From UHGV virus genome UHGV-0195737: a DNA stretch of 58,116 bases; one strand, written 5' to 3'. Each line of letters starts with the position of its first letter. The first letter of the stretch is position 1. Shown one piece after another: positions 27,369-58,116 of the stretch. A program made the translations under genes and the position numbers. The notes below the pieces were generated by a model. It saw only the letters and a program-made list of their open reading frames with translations, did not search any database and was not told the DNA's origin. This DNA comes from a virus.

Positions 27369-28853
27369 TTAAAATCCACGCAGGCGCTTAGGTAACATAA
27401 GGCCCATAGCCTGTGGCTGGCTTAATTCAGTGATACCCCATACCATTGCGTCGAGTCGGTCCGGGGATTTTTTAGCGGTAGCTGGCACGTATTCCATCAT
27501 TTGGTTTTCCAGCGTGTACAGTTCGCCAGTGTGAGCGACCTTACCTTGCGCATACAGTGCTGATATTGGCTCTGCACGGGCGAATTTACCCTTACTGGCG
27601 TGCACCTTAACGATGCGACCATCGAAGCGGGCGTTGCGTAAGGTTGCCTCCGCCATCTCCCCGCCCTGGTTGGTTTCGATAACTATCGCATCAGCTTCGT
27701 GGATCTTGTAAGCGCGTATTGCAGTTTGTGCCCAATCGTTAGGCGACATGCGGCCTGAGTAGTCACCATCGACCGAGTACTGCGCATACTTCCCGCCACC
27801 ATAAGCGGAACACGCCACAATTCCGGTTTCGTCCGATTCTTCCGATGATGTTGTCGCCGGGTCGATAGCAATTACCGTGCGGATCTTGTCCTGCGTTATC
27901 TGCATCCGGTGCGCAGCGGTTATCATCGCTTCCGTCCATAATGCGCCTTCCTCGTCGAATTTACGCGGGCGCTGCATATATTGGGCTTCGAATGATCTGC
28001 GGTGCGCTCTTAGTCCGGCTTCATGGCTATCATTGTGCTTCTTAGGCCATAGCCAGCCATCCGGCAGGTTGTGAGCAATAGGAATGGCGAATTCGTTTTC
28101 AGGGTACAGATCCCAATAACCCAGGCTGTTGTCAATCTTCACGGGCAGATTAAGGTGATGCCACTTCTCACCACTCCCGCCGCGTAGCAGGTAGCCGGAT
28201 AAATCATCGTAATGGATACGCTGCATAATGACGATAACGGGCGTCGCTTGCACTGCCAGACGTGATGCCAGTGTGTCGTTGTAGTTGGTGTTAACCTGCG
28301 TCCTGACCACATCAGAGTAAGCGTCAGCGGGTTTTAATGGGTCGTCAATGATTAACGCACCGTTAAAGCCGGACTCCATATATCCGGCCCTGAATCCTGT
28401 CACCTGCCCTAACGAAGACGTTGCATATACACCGCCGCCGTGTTCCGTCCACCACATCGATTTGGAATTGGCATCATTGCGGATCTTCATAGGCCACATC
28501 GCCTGATATTCCGGCGTACAAATCATACTTCTGACTGTCGATGAATTGAGTAATGCCAGGTTGTTGGAATAGGAAACATGAAGGAAGCGTGTGCGGGGAT
28601 TTATTGCGAGGGAACGCGCCATCATATTGATGGTCGCAATCATGGTTTTACCGTACCCTGGGGGAATGTTAACGATAAGCCGGGTAATCTCACCGTTAAT
28701 AACGCGTTGCAGTGCATCACGGATAGCTAAATGATGGCCTGCGATAAACATCTTCGTTCCGTTGGCCTGCTTATAGAAATAGCGGTTGAAGAACAGGCCG
28801 TCGTTTTCACATTTGGATTGGATAACCCTTTCTTTAATCGTCAACACAATCAC
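27369..28853 (-). CDS. Terminase large subunit
   Basis: 494 aa; Walker A-like PPGYGKT; GTG start overlapping small-subunit stop. Confidence 0.8.
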   Translation of the reverse strand: MIVLTIKERVIQSKCENDGLFFNRYFYKQANGTKMFIAGHHLAIRDALQRVINGEITRLIVNIPPGYGKTMIATINMMARSLAINPRTRFLHVSYSNNLALLNSSTVRSMICTPEYQAMWPMKIRNDANSKSMWWTEHGGGVYATSSLGQVTGFRAGYMESGFNGALIIDDPLKPADAYSDVVRTQVNTNYNDTLASRLAVQATPVIVIMQRIHYDDLSGYLLRGGSGEKWHHLNLPVKIDNSLGYWDLYPENEFAIPIAHNLPDGWLWPKKHNDSHEAGLRAHRRSFEAQYMQRPRKFDEEGALWTEAMITAAHRMQITQDKIRTVIAIDPATTSSEESDETGIVACSAYGGGKYAQYSVDGDYSGRMSPNDWAQTAIRAYKIHEADAIVIETNQGGEMAEATLRNARFDGRIVKVHASKGKFARAEPISALYAQGKVAHTGELYTLENQMMEYVPATAKKSPDRLDAMVWGITELSQPQAMGLMLPKRLRGF

Positions 28854-29335
28854 ACCTCGTCTTCCACTTCCTGGACGATGCGGGCGATCTCTTCTTTCGA
28901 TACCTCCGCTACCTGAACGGGCGCTTCTTCCTTGTTGCCGACGATCTCCTGTGTGACGCGTTCACCGTATTTGCGCGGCTGGAGTTTTGCCAGTAGCCAC
29001 TTGCGGGTATCAATCATCAGTTGATGGCGGCGCAATTCCTCCGCTTTGATGTTTTCTGCGGCGTCAGAAAGATCGATAATTTCATCAGCCAATACCTCAA
29101 AGCCGATCTCCTTCGCGTGCGCGTACATGACCGAGAATTCTGGTATATCTCTAAACCATTTCAAGATTGTGGAACGGGTAGGCATACCGGGCATTTTCGA
29201 AATTTTATTAATGCTCTGACCGTCCGCCACCAGTTCGCAGATCTCTAACGCTTTTTCTTCGGTATAACCATGCGGACGGCCCACCTTTTTAACGGCAGGC
29301 TCTTTATCAACCTTTGCCTTTTTAGTGCGGGCCAT
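28850..29335 (-). CDS. Terminase small subunit
   Basis: 161 aa; N-terminal HTH, acidic C-terminus; SD GAGAGGTGA. Confidence 0.7.
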   Translation of the reverse strand: MARTKKAKVDKEPAVKKVGRPHGYTEEKALEICELVADGQSINKISKMPGMPTRSTILKWFRDIPEFSVMYAHAKEIGFEVLADEIIDLSDAAENIKAEELRRHQLMIDTRKWLLAKLQPRKYGERVTQEIVGNKEEAPVQVAEVSKEEIARIVQEVEDEV

Positions 29336-29345
29336 ATTTCACCTC

Positions 29346-30108
29346 TCAATATTTATTGATGATATATACGCAAGCAACAAAACTTGCACAGTATGTAAAC
29401 ACTTCCAACCAGTCGAATAATTCTTTCATTGTTTACCCTTAAATCTCTGTTTTACTTCTTTGTGAATGAGCGCACCAATCATTACAATCACGTATGCGCA
29501 TAACATTATCGCGACAATAAGCAGACCAGAACAAAGCAAGAACATAAGCAGATCAAGAAACTCGAACATGATATTCCCCTACTGGCTATTTAATATCGTT
29601 AATTCTTGGAAGCGCATAAAATGCGCGTCCGGGCTAAATGGCGAAAGCCAGGGCGATAATGACAATAGCTAAAACCATGCACCAAAAATCTGATTCTTTC
29701 ATTCTTTAAGCTCCCGGTAAACATCCACAGCAATAACCACAACGACTGCCACCAGTAATAACATTTCATATGCGTTCATGCTTTCACCTATACGACGTTT
29801 TTCCACCAGAAATACAGGACACAGGCAAAGGCCACACACGCTATAATTTCGTGAAGCTCCATTGCGTCACCATAATCTATAAATATTCACGCCAATACCC
29901 ACGATAAGCACCAACAACCAGATGAGATCGTAGGCGTTCATAATTTACCTCGTTATAACATCGAACAATGCAAGGCCAACAAACAACAAAACTATCAGTA
30001 ACAGGAAGTCGCCCATAATTACCTCTGCATAGACATGACTACCAGAAACAGGCAAAGAATAAATCCAGCCGCCATACCGCCAATGAATGTTAATATCGAT
30101 GCAACCAT
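29346..30108 (-). other. Tandem array of 8 small hydrophobic ORFs (22-47 aa)
   Basis: Starts near 30108, 30016, 29941, 29862, 29779, 29702, 29569, 29429; each one predicted TM helix; several ATGA overlaps or AGAGGTAA-nn-ATG junctions; two begin MNAY. Confidence 0.35.
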
Positions 30109-30110
30109 AA

Positions 30111-30665
30111 TCAGCCTCGTTTAAAGCTCATAACGCGCGGTACAAGCGCTTCTTTTGCTTTTGCCTTACGTTTCCCTTTCTTCGTGGGTTTTTCTTCTTC
30201 CTGCGGTTGTTCTGCCTGTTCTAACGCCTGTTCTAACGCTTGCTCCACCACTTCTGCTGCCTGTTGTGCTGCAATTTCCGCTTCGTTTGATTCAGCCAGG
30301 ATAGGGAAGAAAGTGTCAAACATGCGCCCGATCATGTAGGCGTAAGTTTCATTCGCCGGATGTTCTGGACTGGTAGTTGCCAACACACCGACGTCACTTA
30401 GGCAATGGAATGTCGCATGAGCAATTTCATGGACCAGCGTACCCATCTCATGATCGAATACAGCTACAACATAGAAGTTGCCGCCGTTCTCACCAGTACA
30501 GGTTAACGTCAGGCCGCCAGCCAGTTCGAAATCAGGCTCGATTGGAATATGTGCACGCTCGCAGAAGTCATAAAAGATTTCGCGGGTCGGGCAAAAGAAA
30601 ACGGTTGTATGCTCAAAGAGCGGGATCTTGAAGTGAGGCAATTTTAAGCCTTTACCCTTAGCCAT
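30111..30665 (-). CDS. Putative zinc metallopeptidase-like protein (HExxH)
   Basis: 184 aa; LVHEIAHATFH motif; Gln/Glu/Ala-rich and Lys-rich C-terminus; SD AGGAG. Confidence 0.45.
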   Translation of the reverse strand: MAKGKGLKLPHFKIPLFEHTTVFFCPTREIFYDFCERAHIPIEPDFELAGGLTLTCTGENGGNFYVVAVFDHEMGTLVHEIAHATFHCLSDVGVLATTSPEHPANETYAYMIGRMFDTFFPILAESNEAEIAAQQAAEVVEQALEQALEQAEQPQEEEKPTKKGKRKAKAKEALVPRVMSFKRG

Positions 30666-30941
30666 CAGAATATTCTCCTACGTTGGAAAATATAACCCCC
30701 GTAAATTTTGATACCATCGGGGAGTAAAACAGATATAAAACACTGAAAACGGCGCTTATCAGTACCGTTTCCAGAATTTTATAAATTGGTGGATGGCGCT
30801 TTCTTCTACCCAGGTAGCGCCGACCTGTTAATGGGATGGATGATCCGGTATTACGTGTTTTTGACTATTCCGCCGTCGCTCGCGGGAAGGATTGGCCCGG
30901 TTATGGCTGGCTGGCGGAAACGGCGACACGTCCACGCGCTG

Positions 30942-32110: not shown

Positions 32111-32140
32111 AACAAAGCAAAAACCCGGCGCGGGGCCGGG
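32111..32140 (-). terminator. Late-leader terminator (tR'-like)
   Basis: CCCGGCCCCGCGCCGGG stem followed by TTTTTGCTTTGTT, just upstream of holin. Confidence 0.55.
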
Positions 32141-32379
32141 TGAATACAATTTCGCATTGTTAGGAAATATTTTAATCCGTTTGTTTAACCTATACAAACA
32201 CGGCTTATAGCTACAAATCACCAACCTTGCGCCAGGTCCGCTTCGATGCCTTTGATGGTGTTTACATATTCGCGTTTCATTTTCTTATCTCCCCTTCCGT
32301 CTTTCCTTGACTTATATATAACAAAACGGCACTGCCGGAACAATGCCATTTTGTAAACTTTGCGGGGTAGATCACGCTT
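32141..32379 (-). promoter_or_regulatory. Putative late promoter / Q-utilisation region
   Basis: Only sizeable non-coding gap between Q and holin; contains CCATTTTGT motif and a 20-aa SD-preceded mini-ORF. Confidence 0.3.
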
Positions 32380-40916: not shown

Positions 40917-41150
40917 TTAAAAATAATCCTGTTCCGTCCCCCAGCGGTTGTTTAAATACCCCACCAACCACACAAACCGCTCAATACTGATTAGCGGGGC
41001 GACCTTGCGATAATGCCTATCGAGTATCAGCCGCGTGGCTTTATCGCTATAGCCGTTTCTTTCTACCTCCGCTTTGCAGGCAGAAAGCGCCGCGCGGGCA
41101 GCAGTTTTAACGGCGTTAAATTGCGGCTCTGACAGGTTGAATAAAGCCAT
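40917..41150 (-). CDS. Hypothetical protein
   Basis: Start set at internal ATG with SD GGTGA. Confidence 0.35.
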   Translation of the reverse strand: MALFNLSEPQFNAVKTAARAALSACKAEVERNGYSDKATRLILDRHYRKVAPLISIERFVWLVGYLNNRWGTEQDYF

Positions 41151-41154
41151 ATAA

Positions 41155-41391
41155 TCACCACGGATCATCCCAATCAGGTGCGGCAGCCCAACAAAAACCC
41201 ATGAAAACACTAAAAGCGATTAGCACGCGTACACCAAAAAACAATTCCGCCCACGGTCGAATATCAGGAAGCGACCATGTGATAAACATTGCACCGACAA
41301 TCAAAACAGCAATAATGACAGTGCACCCCAGGAAAACAAAAAGCGCGGCTAAAAGCCACGCCCCCAAGAAATGAAACAGTTCTCTTAACAT
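41155..41391 (-). CDS. Small membrane protein (2 TM)
   Basis: 78 aa, two hydrophobic helices. Confidence 0.4.
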   Translation of the reverse strand: MLRELFHFLGAWLLAALFVFLGCTVIIAVLIVGAMFITWSLPDIRPWAELFFGVRVLIAFSVFMGFCWAAAPDWDDPW

Positions 41392-41779: not shown

Positions 41780-41797
41780 ATTCAGCCTCACAAATAT

Positions 41798-41965
41798 TTT
41801 TCAATCACCCAGCGGAGAAACAAACCGACCATTACGATCCCCCAGCAACAAGCCATAAACATCAATTCAGCGTCCATTGTGTTTTCCTTCTTCCCAGGCG
41901 AAATAACAAACAAAGCCAACCAGGGCGAACAACCAACAACCCAGGATTAAATCAATCAGCCACAT
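41798..41965 (-). other. Two coupled hydrophobic microprotein ORFs (about 29 and 32 aa)
   Basis: MWLIDLILGCWLFALVGFVCYFAW with SD GGAGG; overlapping start of MDAELMFMACCWGIVMVGLFLRW. Confidence 0.3.
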
Positions 41966-42196: not shown

Positions 42197-42379
42197 CTAA
42201 TAGCAAACCGCGTACATACAGATCCCGTTGTTGAAGGCTTTGATAATCAGGTCAATGATCATGTAAACGAGCATTACAGCCGCCGCCGGGACCAGAATCG
42301 CGAATAGTCCGCCTAACGTGCGCTCAATGATGAAGTGCGGGTTTAGTTTGCTTTTGTGGTTACGTTCAAAGTTTGTCAT
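42197..42379 (-). CDS. Small membrane protein
   Basis: About 60 aa from internal ATG; one TM helix. Confidence 0.35.
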   Translation of the reverse strand: MTNFERNHKSKLNPHFIIERTLGGLFAILVPAAAVMLVYMIIDLIIKAFNNGICMYAVCY

Positions 42380-42416
42380 TTTCCCGCCCTCCGTTCTGTA
42401 TACCTTTCGATTTAAG

Positions 42417-42475
42417 TTTACAAAACGGATACAGCAGGACAAGACAAAATGTATATTTATGTGATCGCAATCACG
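42417..42475. promoter_or_regulatory. Intergenic element B (homologue of element A)
   Basis: TACAAAACGGATAC...TGTGATCGCAATCACG; near-CRP palindrome. Confidence 0.4.
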
Positions 42476-43626: not shown

Positions 43627-43889
43627 ACGCCGAACATCCCATTTAGACCAGCGAACAACCGCCGCCAGTGGTTTTCAACATAAGCCCGGAACGGCTTAAC
43701 ACGAACATTGCGGGCCGTTAGTACGATACTATCGAAGTAGCGCGGCTCGATCAGCGTGCCATCTAAATATTGAACAAGTAACGGTCGTTCAAGATCGCTA
43801 CATGTTTTATTCAGCACGACCAGGCCAGGATCACTACGATATGCAGGCAAAACAACGAGATCACCCGCCTTTGCATCCCAAATCATCAT
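43617..43889 (-). CDS. Hypothetical protein
   Basis: First ATG (track start is GTG). Confidence 0.4.
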   Translation of the reverse strand: MMIWDAKAGDLVVLPAYRSDPGLVVLNKTCSDLERPLLVQYLDGTLIEPRYFDSIVLTARNVRVKPFRAYVENHWRRLFAGLNGMFGVWL

Positions 43890-44130
43890 CACATTAACCC
43901 CTTACCAATAAAGCTAATCACCGCCGCCAGTGCGCCGCAAAACACAACCGTAAACAGGAAGCAAATAACGCAAAACGCAACCCTTACAATATCCTTACCG
44001 ACTTTCATAATTGGCCTCACATATTAGTAATCAGTTTGATGATCGCCACCGTGATATAAAGCGAAACACTGAGATACAGCACCGCCACTGCTACCGCCGC
44101 GAGCAATGCGGCAATTTTTGCGAGATTCAT
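43889..44130 (-). other. Two coupled hydrophobic microprotein ORFs (about 37 and 39 aa)
   Basis: MNLAKIAALLAAVAVAVLYLSVSLYITVAIIKLITNM and MKVGKDIVRVAFCVICFLFTVVFCGALAAVISFIGKGLM; ATGA overlap with upstream gene. Confidence 0.3.
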
Positions 44131-56329: not shown

Positions 56330-56503
56330 TGAACGCGAATAAACAAGGCGAGATCCTTTTTGGCGAAGTGGTATCAGCAGCGGCAGACGCACGGGTATTT
56401 GTCGAAGGCCGCTGGCAGTTTGATGATGATAAGCTCAATACGTTGCATCATTTAGGTGCTGGCACGTTTGTTACCAGTGGTAAGCGAGTTACCGCGGGCT
56501 AAA
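56330..56503 (+). CDS. Hypothetical small protein (flank)
   Basis: 57-aa ORF MNANKQGEILFGEVV...; outside prophage. Confidence 0.25.
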
Positions 56504-56567
56504 GAATCATATGCAGCAACCAAGTTGTTTAAGCAATGTTTCCATATGAGTTAAAGCATATTTTATC

Positions 56568-57034
56568 TCACGATTGCATATTTTTAGTGAAGATTAATTT
56601 ATCCTCACCAACATCATAGTAATTGCGTATTATCGCCTCATTGATAAAGCCCTGTTTTGTATAAAATGCGCGGGCGGCACTAAAATCGATATGGCTGGCG
56701 GTCTCTACTAATAGTAGTCTTGCCTGTTTAATTGTGAGCTCTTTTCTATTTCGTTAATCAGCAGATGTCTCACTCCCTGGCGCTGATGGGAAGGACTGAT
56801 CCAGAGCATTAATAAATTTCAGACATCATTTGTCATCATTTCAGAAGCACAGTAGGCAATCCCTGCCAGTCCCAAGTGTTCTGCACTAAACCATAAATCG
56901 GCAGATTGACCTGAGAAATAATGTGTTAGTGTTTTTTGTACATGATGAAGGCCATCTTGATCAAATTGATCCCTGTCAAGCAGCATATCCATTAATGGTT
57001 CAACATCTGAAGGTTTGACTGGTCGTATAAACAT
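56568..57034 (-). pseudogene. GNAT-family acetyltransferase, frameshifted
   Basis: N-terminal fragment (track ORF 56819-57034) and C-terminal fragment with ARAFYTKQGF motif in a different frame. Confidence 0.45.
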
Positions 57035-57111
57035 GGAACTCCTTATTTATTGATGAATATTTGAAAATTGTTTGCATGGAACGCGGTTAATCTGAATTTT
57101 CAGCGGAAGTT

Positions 57112-57255
57112 TCACTCAAAGGCTTTATTAATCCGCTCCTTATGTCCTTTTACAGCAAATAAATAATTACCTCCCTGTTTTTGTATCTTCTCTGCAATAT
57201 CTTTCTGGCAACCCATCGCATCAGTTGTGATAATTTCACCTTTAATATCCAACAT
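57112..57255 (-). pseudogene. ISAs1-family (H-repeat-associated) transposase remnant
   Basis: 48-aa fragment [27 protein letters not shown] matches conserved ISAs1 transposase core. Confidence 0.5.
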
Positions 57256-57493
57256 GTTAGTATCAATTATTGAACATAAAATGTAAATTATTTAGTGCAA
57301 AAAATCGGCGCACCGTGTTCTTTCCCATATTCCTAATATGGCAACTTTAAGTTATCGCCGTCTATACTTATAGAAATTTCATCAGGGGTGACGTAAATAG
57401 AATTTTTTTCATCCTCAATTGCCCATAACTGATTAATAAAAAAGTGTTTTTTCATCTAATAACAAATTATTACATGTAGTAAAATTATTAATA

Positions 57494-57961
57494 TCAAAAA
57501 AAATCATCAGCACAATTAATTTTTAAATTTAAAAAATAAAGAAAAATATTATTGATTGATTTGAGTGTAAACCACTTGTCATTAACAAATTTATAGCCAG
57601 ATGGTTTTATAAAATAATAATTATCTCCTGGTATAAAGGCATACATATCATTTAAGGTTATACTCAACAAAAAACTACGACCTGGTTTAATAGTATTCCA
57701 CCGTTCAGGATTCGTATTAATTTCAAAAGGACATGAACCACCTAAGTAGTCCAACGTGATATTCCCAGAGTTGATTCTGAATGGTTTTTTGCATATCGCA
57801 TCATATTCATCTCCTTTTCCATCTTTTACTTTCATAGGTAGATAATATTTAGAAAAAAAATACGTGGTAGAGCTATTGTTAGTAAAGGTTATGTTAGCAA
57901 AAATCCTGTTATTTTTTTTACTCATAGCTAATTGAGCATTGACATCCGCTATATAATTCAT
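57494..57961 (-). CDS. Hypothetical protein in AT-rich flank
   Basis: 155-aa ORF, very AT-rich, Asn/Lys/Phe-rich. Confidence 0.35.
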   Translation of the reverse strand: MNYIADVNAQLAMSKKNNRIFANITFTNNSSTTYFFSKYYLPMKVKDGKGDEYDAICKKPFRINSGNITLDYLGGSCPFEINTNPERWNTIKPGRSFLLSITLNDMYAFIPGDNYYFIKPSGYKFVNDKWFTLKSINNIFLYFLNLKINCADDFF

Positions 57962-58116
57962 ATGATTGTATTTTTTCTTACACTCATCATAATTTTCGAT
58001 AGGATAAATTAATGGCCTTCCTTTGATATCTCTCTCAAGCCCAAACCCGTATTTTTTATTAAAACCATTTCATCCGCAGTCGATTGAAAGGAATAGAAAA
58101 ATATAATATTTACGAT

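Follow-up and report, generated by a model that had tools for sequence, protein, structure and literature searches.

The UHGV virus genome UHGV-0195737, a stretch of 58,116 nt (the window in what follows), raises the question of what a phage encodes in the 775 nt between a gene with an HExxH motif and the gene for its small terminase subunit (terS). A first-pass annotation, made from the letters alone, had placed there a tandem array of eight translationally coupled open reading frames (ORFs) for hydrophobic microproteins, and had likened them to type I toxins or small membrane modulators. Comparison with related loci indicates that the array is real, conserved, and essentially undescribed. 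Small membrane proteins of phages and bacteria are a known kind; what is new is their arrangement as a recombining, coupled array of 20–47 aa ORFs. The genes in question are listed here in sense order; the letters given to the microgenes are those of the peptide families described below.

30111..30665, minus strand: HExxH gene, upstream anchor; 184 aa, soluble, zincin-like, HEIAHxxxH...NETYAYM
30019..30108, minus strand: microgene A, 29 aa, MVASILTF..., MVASILTFIGGMAAGFILCLFLVVMSMQR; Shine-Dalgarno (SD) sequence GAGG within the end of the HExxH gene
29945..30016, minus strand: microgene Bx, 23 aa, MGDFLLL..., MGDFLLLIVLLFVGLALFDVITR; junction AGAGGTAAttATG; internal ATG of a longer TTG ORF
29867..29941, minus strand: microgene C, 24 aa, MNAYDLIW..., MNAYDLIWLLVLIVGIGVNIYRLW
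29788..29862, minus strand: microgene E2, 24 aa, MELHEII..., MELHEIIACVAFACVLYFWWKNVV
29699..29779, minus strand: microgene G, 26 aa, MNAYEMLL..., MNAYEMLLLVAVVVVIAVDVYRELKE; internal ATG; stop overlaps next start (ATGA)
29634..29702, minus strand: microgene of H3 type, 22 aa, MKESDFW..., MKESDFWCMVLAIVIIALAFAI
29426..29569, minus strand: microgene K, 47 aa, MFEFLDLL...HKEVKQRFKGKQ; stop overlaps next start (ATGA)
29346..29429, minus strand: microgene L, 27 aa, MKELFDWL..., MKELFDWLEVFTYCASFVACVYIINKY; last cassette, 10 nt 5' of terS
28850..29335, minus strand: terS, downstream anchor, Sf6-type small terminase subunit; PF20901 Sf6_terminase, E = 3e-35; PHROG 1482
27369-28853, minus strand: large terminase gene (terL), next after terS

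Coding signal in the microgene chain

The eight minus-strand ORFs (29, 23, 24, 24, 26, 22, 47, and 27 aa) take up 690 of the 775 nt separating the anchors. Their positions, strand, and sizes are as first described, each being close to a single predicted transmembrane (TM) helix, and both flanking genes had been correctly named, as the motif of the one and the PF20901 match of the other confirm. The HExxH(x3)H...NE motif is invariant in the product of the upstream gene. From the HExxH gene to terS the gaps are 2, 2, 3, 4, 8, -4, 64, -4, and 10 nt, the first being the distance from the HExxH stop to the start of A and the two negative values ATGA overlaps at 29699-29702 (G/H3) and 29426-29429 (K/L). 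The remaining junctions include the stop/start types AGAGGTAAttATG and ACGAGGTAAattATG, of the general form AGAGGTAA-nn-ATG. These overlaps and junctions, and the MNAY starts of C and G, had all been read correctly. An SD-like motif lies 5–8 nt 5' of every window microgene start; two of the eight (Bx and G) start at an ATG internal to a longer TTG or GTG ORF. Overlap or short spacing, together with an SD in or just after the preceding ORF, is what is expected of a translationally coupled polycistron. The GC content is 0.39–0.43 in the array, against ~0.49–0.55 in its flanks.

For a chance expectation, a chain was scored as the longest non-overlapping run of ATG ORFs of 20–60 aa with a hydrophobic 15-mer, and compared with 2000 dinucleotide-preserving shuffles. 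The observed chain is eight, while the shuffles averaged less than one and reached a maximum of four, once in 2000, so the original judgment that a coupled chain of this length would not easily arise by chance holds. The antisense strand of the array region gave a chain of 0, and equal-sized windows entirely outside the region gave at most three on either strand.

Stronger evidence comes from 44 loci with both anchor genes, collected using TerS as anchor (individual loci are cited by L numbers). The start codon is ATG in 398 of 409 microgene copies and a non-start codon (ACG or ATA) in only five, and lengths are conserved. The pooled Nei-Gojobori ratio of nonsynonymous to synonymous differences (pN/pS) is 0.27 in frame, and the two shifted frames give 0.97 and 1.31. 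In 19 of 20 families the lowest ratio is that of the proposed frame, with a per-family range of 0.03–0.42, and variable sites in the pooled families are distributed 149:105:269 by codon position. Since gathering families by peptide similarity is a possible source of bias, a second version of the test, blind to frame and built on blastn alignments to the window, was made; it gave variable sites of 78:66:128 (chi-square p = 7e-6). The low ratio has a counterpart in one antisense frame (0.36), as expected from geometry, but that frame contains ~12 stops versus none in the sense frames. Maintenance of the reading frames in homologous regions, which had been proposed as a check on the array, is thus found across the 44 loci, and with purifying selection.

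The signal is spread over most of the window microgenes. G and L, each present at 42 of 44 loci, have pN/pS values of 0.26 and 0.21, with variable sites at 6:5:16 and 13:16:24 by codon position. The H3 type (15 loci) stands at 0.29 with 9:5:13, and C (nine loci) at 0.15 with 6:2:13, while E2 has the same ratio, 0.15, relative to its single ortholog (2:1:6). Values for A and K are 0.33 (13 loci) and 0.30 (12 loci). With Bx, considered below, as the exception, the evidence is strong, and these comparisons show genuine protein-coding microgenes.

A variable array of recombining cassettes

A same-strand chain of hydrophobic micro-ORFs lies between the anchors at all 44 loci, in an interval of 320–1130 bp (670–1130 bp in 43 of them). 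The ORFs fall into ~20 hydrophobic families and one soluble 47-aa family, and the order of cassettes is fixed: A/A2, B2/Bx, B, C, D, E/E2, F2, F, G, H2, H, I/I2, J, H3, K, L, (N). Which of them are present varies, with 3–12 cassettes per array (median 10) and 34 different compositions. A and A2 are never found together, nor are I and I2, each pair being alternative alleles that share a slot. The window composition (A, Bx, C, E2, G, H3, K, L) is atypical, without the near-universal B, D, and H. Over 453 junctions the median gap is 7 nt; 112 overlap and 323 have gaps of 0–15 nt, and an SD of 4 nt or more precedes 338 of 409 starts. No comparable array lies upstream of distant TerS relatives in other bacteria.

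Five loci (L007, L032, L035, L036, and L045) have an extra ORF of 47 aa between L and terS, charged and non-hydrophobic (e.g., MNDEELKIADEIRKTLDSAENNETIYLSEQEVEKMMNEFKLRFGKDD). This soluble family, which is not in the window, has a pN/pS of 0.32. At a divergent locus, L068, an HNH/AP2-domain gene is inserted between the endolysin and spanin genes (2252-2773). The HExxH gene of L068 is only ~71% identical in nucleotide sequence to the others, while its array is up to 94% identical, pointing to mosaic exchange around the array.

Within the arrays there are traces of how cassettes arise. C, E, and G share a 5' segment of 25 nt with 72–84% identity, so that some cassettes arose by duplication, and the C-terminal half of E2 (YFWWKNVV) is that of the common family E, which indicates a chimera. 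Overall, comparison of the loci shows an array that evolves as cassettes are gained, lost, duplicated, replaced by other alleles, or fused into chimeras.

The window is recognizable as an E. coli prophage of the mEpimmI (mEp021-like) group: its phage genes are ~80–87% identical in nucleotide sequence to those of the mEpimmI temperate coliphages mEp021, mEp044, and MagusPhagus. The right end (56400-58116) is E. coli chromosome, a yddH flavin reductase and ISAs1 transposase region with 99.8% identity to several strains, and this chromosomal sequence identifies the host as E. coli.

Cassette A is also found well outside this group. An A-like peptide of 29 aa, 71–75% identical to that of the window, matches 96 phage records, the great majority of them Vequintavirus (rV5-like virulent myoviruses), where it is encoded by a lone gene amid small hypothetical genes. 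Between window A and the Vequintavirus copy 23 of 90 nt differ, at 7:3:13 by codon position. Closer still is the A allele of L011, which is identical at 87 of 90 nt (97% for the peptide) to bas55_0158 of phage JeffSchatz (L055 2501-2590). Only from about -15 to +97 relative to the ATG are the two homologous, a span comprising the SD, the ORF, and the TGA-tt-ATG junction; outside it the sequences are unrelated. The A cassette of the mEpimmI phages lies between two copies of a direct repeat, CGAGGCTGAttATG, of which the HExxH gene supplies one with its end (...KRG, stop) and A the other with its own (...MRG, stop). This is the expected trace of insertion or loss by short-homology recombination at the junctions. 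These alignments show at least one cassette, of ~110 bp, that has apparently been exchanged between a temperate siphovirus group and unrelated virulent myoviruses.

No nucleotide relatives of the other cassettes were found beyond the mEpimmI group; a distant blastn search with a 12-cassette array matched only mEpimmI phages and prophages, and the only contigs recovered from IMG/VR in a degenerate-DNA scan for cassette A were ones already collected. A tblastn search of phage genomes with the concatenated peptides found A and L only; other cassettes went undetected even in mEp044, where several of these families are present. These misses are suspected to be due to the BLAST low-complexity filter and the weak E-values of short peptides.

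Protein databases say equally little. The consensus peptides of the 21 families had no PHROGs match at E ≤ 0.001 and none to the NCBIfam type I toxin models (best E = 0.29, one member), and for the eight window peptides nothing in Pfam exceeded a family cutoff and no toxin family appeared. Matches to holins were all sub-threshold: PHROG 920 at E = 0.0024 (K), PHROG 263 at E = 0.18, and Pfam Holin_SPP1, which scored 15.7 bits where the cutoff is 27. Six of the eight window peptides are absent from a 15-billion-protein collection, A being one of the two present; K is represented by ~10 clusters in 5.8 billion proteins and two representative clusters in 1.84 billion. Metagenome gene callers find only K in the array, plus a spurious 35-aa ORF. 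In the archetype record, mEp021, an array of 485 bp (D, G, H2, H, and a divergent L) is unannotated. Arrays are present in 35 of 5426 complete E. coli RefSeq genomes, in most of which PGAP has no feature there, while PHANOTATE/Pharokka-style annotation (mEp044, MagusPhagus) gives some ORFs as “hypothetical protein.” No description of the array was found in the literature: the words “transmembrane” and “terminase” do not occur in the mEpimmI paper, and neither a review of phage small proteins nor a study of the Enterobacteriaceae microproteome discusses it.

Transcription context and RNA elements

The mEp021 map runs from a Q-like late regulator through a block of small genes, a terminator, a class II holin, lysozyme, spanin, a terminator-like hairpin, the HExxH gene, and the array to terS and terL. 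The mEpimmI group depends on Nus factors and on N-like and Q-like proteins (PMC11893012). In the window a class II holin gene (PF16080) directly precedes that for the endolysin, and the array lies beyond the spanin gene, a 275-nt spacer, and the HExxH gene. Crude prediction gave no promoter-like or terminator-like sites on the sense strand within 29336-30110, and the array region as a whole has two promoter-like sites versus 6.9 expected from shuffles. From its position, its strand, and the lack of internal sense promoters and terminators, the array is most simply taken to be part of a Q-antiterminated late transcript. Three RNA elements bear on this context:

32123-32141, minus strand: strong GC-rich intrinsic terminator, ACCCGGCCCCGCGCCGGGT with T-run, just 5' of the holin gene
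~30725-30774, minus strand: terminator-like hairpin, CTGGAAACGG...CCGTTTTCAG with T-rich tail, in the spanin-HExxH spacer (30666-30941)
29608..29630, minus strand: 23-nt palindromic hairpin, GGACGCGCATTTTATGCGCTTCC, in the sole sizeable non-coding gap of the array (29570-29633, 64 nt)

The first is at the position of TERM_5 of mEp021 and resembles a lambda tR'-type target for a Q-like late regulator. The spacer holding the second folds better than shuffles (z = -2.96) and contains the annotated TERM_6 in mEp021; a terminator-like hairpin here implies that the HExxH-array-terminase block is reached by antiterminated read-through. The third is conserved: the identical 23-mer occurs at L002 (mEp044), L025, L029, and L045, loci to which four of the 12 largest array gaps (68–166 nt) belong. 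Having no T-run, it is not a classical terminator; a part in RNA stability or processing is possible, as is an origin as a scar of recombination.

An Rfam scan of the array gave no match. There is a weak antisense promoter-like site inside K (29460-29488, plus strand), and over the 44 loci promoter-like hexamers are more numerous on the antisense strand than on the sense strand (93 vs 21). This excess looks composition-driven, as the common -10-like hexamers, GATAAT and AATAAT, are the complement of Ile codon pairs and the antisense strand is A-rich.

Isolated small predicted membrane proteins are also encoded on the minus strand of the early region, at 41155-41391, 41788-41919, 42197-42442, 43889-44020, and 44017-44130. 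They include one of 78 aa with two hydrophobic stretches and others with a single stretch, 29–60 aa from internal ATGs; they are scattered among soluble small genes and not chained like the array. Nearby on the same strand, ~40917-41150 encodes a homolog of Ipe (“inducer of pleiotropic effects”) of mEp021, a protein that mediates the haemolytic phenotype of mEp021 lysogens (PMC11893012). Ipe was considered as an array member and rejected, being a soluble early protein of 77 aa. Elsewhere in the window, two 1325-aa ORFs were considered as possible duplicates and found not to be duplicates of each other, and there are no tRNA genes anywhere in it.

Possible roles and comparison with known systems

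The peptides follow a common plan: an N-terminal flank of 2–9 residues, 15–30 hydrophobic residues, and 0–11 C-terminal residues. The end of the N-flank is almost always Asp or Glu, M-x3-[DE] being the commonest form, and the maximal Kyte-Doolittle mean over 15 residues is 2.1–3.3 for the eight window peptides. In most of the 20 hydrophobic families the N-flank is net-negative, and in all but one the C-flank is neutral or basic, up to +4 in K, where a basic tail follows a hydrophobic stretch of ~30 residues. By the positive-inside rule such flanks predict single-pass insertion with the N-terminus out and the C-terminus in. The coat protein of phage Pf3 is likewise small, is Sec-independent, and has an acidic N-tail that is translocated, and the same N-out/C-in insertion into the inner membrane is predicted for the array peptides. 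Families have their own invariant Gly, Cys, Asn, and Asp residues, for example GGxAxGF in A and GMMLG...GL in F. Peptides of 22–29 residues cannot be enzymes, and must act by binding membrane proteins or by perturbing the bilayer.

The function we infer, with a probability of about 0.6, is that of real late-operon, single-pass inner-membrane microproteins acting as target-specific TM-helix modulators. The array would be transcribed solely within the late transcript, judging from its position, together with the holin, endolysin, spanin, and HExxH genes before it and terS and terL after it. Translation would proceed by coupling or re-initiation at the junctions of -4 to +10 nt with their SD-like motifs. 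Each product, by its sequence a bare TM helix, would insert N-out/C-in into the inner membrane, and late in infection the peptides would be present as free-standing TM-helix ligands, each binding and modulating a particular inner-membrane protein of the host, of a defence system, or of a competing phage, in the manner of AcrZ, MgrB, MgtS, or BPV E5. Targets are preferred over pores because a phage has ~10 distinct families side by side, each under purifying selection (pN/pS 0.03–0.42), which redundant pore-formers would not be expected to maintain, and because of the mutually exclusive slot alleles. In addition, A is kept alone in an unrelated virulent phage, in another neighbourhood, which suggests that its function is independent of the lysis genes of the mEpimmI phages. 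Small membrane modulators were one of the two possibilities raised in the first-pass annotation; the idea fits all of the observations and is the reading preferred here, as an interpretation of sequence.

Several points weigh against it. Some of the helices are short, with 15–16 hydrophobic residues, which is marginal for spanning a bilayer. The Gly, Cys, and polar residues are no more invariant than the aliphatic ones (58% in both classes), so that a helix-packing interface is not demonstrated. The crudeness of the promoter prediction leaves room for expression in the lysogen, and a site near the lysis cassette also fits a role in lysis timing. Finally, Bx has a single ortholog (L026), with a pN/pS of 0.36 on few differences and a lower ratio in one shifted frame; it gave no clear signal in the frame-blind codon-position test, and is the least supported of the eight.

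A lysis-timing or depolarising role is the main rival. Here the peptides would be generic membrane-perturbing agents, comparable to type I toxins or viroporins yet lacking the toxin-antitoxin architecture, accumulating late and tuning the timing of triggering through loss of proton-motive force or interaction with the class II holin. Location in the late transcript downstream of the holin, endolysin, and spanin genes agrees with this, as do a size and hydrophobicity like those of Ibs, ShoB, and DinQ-type toxins, and the long hydrophobic stretch, holin-like basic tail, and marginal PHROG holin match (E = 0.0024) of K. Such a role is nevertheless rather unlikely: the holin matches are below significance, the phage already has a complete holin, endolysin, and spanin set, parted from the array by the 275-nt spacer with its terminator-like hairpin and by the HExxH gene, and cassette A in Vequintavirus sits away from the lysis genes. 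Nor would a generic role need ~10 selected families per phage or slot-specific alleles. A further alternative is a translational relay in which only the passage of ribosomes matters, for protection from Rho-dependent polarity or for delivery of ribosomes to terS, and the peptides are by-products. Coupling does reach terS, 10 nt from the last stop, and single cassettes are dispensable, arrays having anywhere from three to 12. Such a relay predicts a pN/pS of ~1, far from the values observed for individual families; the phages could simply delete the spacer; and the conservation of the 29-aa cassette A as a peptide in an unrelated phage, with 13–14 of the 23 differences at third positions, makes it very unlikely.

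The other suggestion of the first-pass annotation, type I toxin-antitoxin families, in which an antisense or overlapping small RNA would restrain each peptide, after the pattern of the tandem ldr, ibs, and zor loci, is not supported and scarcely credible. Small (<60 aa), hydrophobic, single-TM, tandem ORFs are indeed typical of such toxins, and the weak antisense site in K and the excess of antisense hexamers (93 versus 21) point the same way. That excess, however, has the look of base composition, promoter-like sites are rarer than in shuffles (2 vs 6.9), and neither Pfam, NCBIfam (best E = 0.29), nor Rfam gave a match, while junctions of -4 to +10 nt have no room for individual promoters or structured 5' untranslated regions (UTRs), and seemingly none for antitoxin RNAs. 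That there are no genes here at all, and that the stretch is a low-GC, T-rich spacer with chance ORFs or serves packaging or regulation as non-coding DNA, is effectively refuted by the comparative data. T-rich DNA (here GC 0.39–0.43 vs ~0.49–0.55) readily yields hydrophobic ORFs, and neither PGAP nor the mEp021 curators annotated anything; against this stand a chain of eight where shuffles reach at most four, the conservation of frames, starts, and stops at 44 loci, codon periodicity with a pN/pS of 0.27, and the lack of any Rfam match.

Beyond target-specific modulation of individual proteins, a more far-reaching idea is possible, and is put forward tentatively. The array may be an unrecognised phage accessory system, a recombining toolkit of TM-helix microproteins that each neutralise or hijack a different inner-membrane protein, with cassettes of ~100 bp, bounded by stop/SD/start junction repeats, traded between temperate and virulent phages. 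Possible targets are defence effectors that act at the membrane, the route by which a competing phage's DNA enters, and transport or energy complexes of the host. If so, a layer of the phage-host arms race would lie within the bilayer, invisible to current gene callers.

Whatever the function, some 0.5–1.1 kb of a common group of gut coliphages is annotated as empty or nearly so and yet holds up to 12 genes under selection, a concrete measure of what is hidden by the 30-codon floor of gene calling. A unit as small as an SD and a 29-codon ORF can evidently move between unrelated phages. The system should be a tractable one for microprotein work, since mEp021 and mEp044 grow on E. coli K-12, an allelic series and presence/absence variants exist, and one cassette is shared with Vequintavirus phages of the Bas collection. 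If the peptides do have membrane-protein targets, they would be ready-made TM-helix inhibitors of E. coli inner-membrane functions.

Among known systems, the closest in form are the enterobacterial single-pass inner-membrane proteins AcrZ, MgrB, MgtS, KdpF, CydX, PmrR, YohP, YpdK, and YobI (the last three 21–27 aa). Like the AcrZ/MgrB/MgtS class, the array peptides have at most 50 aa, consist almost wholly of one TM helix, with flanks obeying the positive-inside rule, and are missed by gene callers. Those regulators bind a larger membrane protein, the mechanism proposed for the array peptides too. They are encoded by single chromosomal genes with their own regulation and known partners, whereas here 3–12 sequence-unrelated peptides are chained in one phage late operon with turnover of cassettes, and there is no homology. 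With the type I toxins (Ibs/Sib, Ldr/Rdl, ZorO/OrzO, ShoB, DinQ, TisB, Hok) the array shares small, hydrophobic, membrane-type products and multi-copy tandem arrangement; DinQ, for one, is described as a toxic single-TM inner-membrane peptide (PMC3567139). Each of these toxins, however, is transcribed separately, has a structured 5' UTR, and is paired with an antisense RNA, while the array ORFs are 0–10 nt apart or overlapping in one operon.

Classical phage morons, accessory genes such as lambda bor in the hot spot that separates the lysis and packaging modules, come with a promoter and terminator that allow expression in the prophage state. The array is moron-like as lower-GC DNA between conserved late genes, present or absent among relatives (34 compositions at 44 loci), and unlike them in that no promoter or terminator of its own is predicted, by a crude method, and in that its units are microgenes of ~75–140 bp, not ordinary genes. 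Holins, antiholins, and the lysis proteins of single-stranded DNA and RNA phages (E, L, LysM) are usually 35–100 aa or more, single or paired, and lie within or constitute the lysis system. These proteins act on the membrane or its enzymes. The array peptides resemble them in being short, TM, phage-encoded, and probably late, and differ from holins in lying outside the lysis cassette of a phage that has its own holin, endolysin, and spanin. Rows of 20–30-aa ORFs with their own SDs are known in Gram-positive bacteria, in the staphylococcal psm-alpha operon and in aureocin A70, whose products are amphipathic or cationic and have a dedicated ABC exporter. Several micro-ORFs in a row on one transcript, each with an SD, is a common feature; unlike phenol-soluble modulins and leaderless bacteriocins, the array peptides are uniformly hydrophobic, and there is no transporter gene between the lysis genes and the portal gene. 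Finally, cluster AU Arthrobacter phages have many small single-TM proteins, with a mean of 137 aa, which are not described in that report as a coupled tandem array (PMC5679793). The likeness is in the number of single-TM small proteins per phage; those of the present array are 20–47 aa, contiguous, coupled, and recombining.

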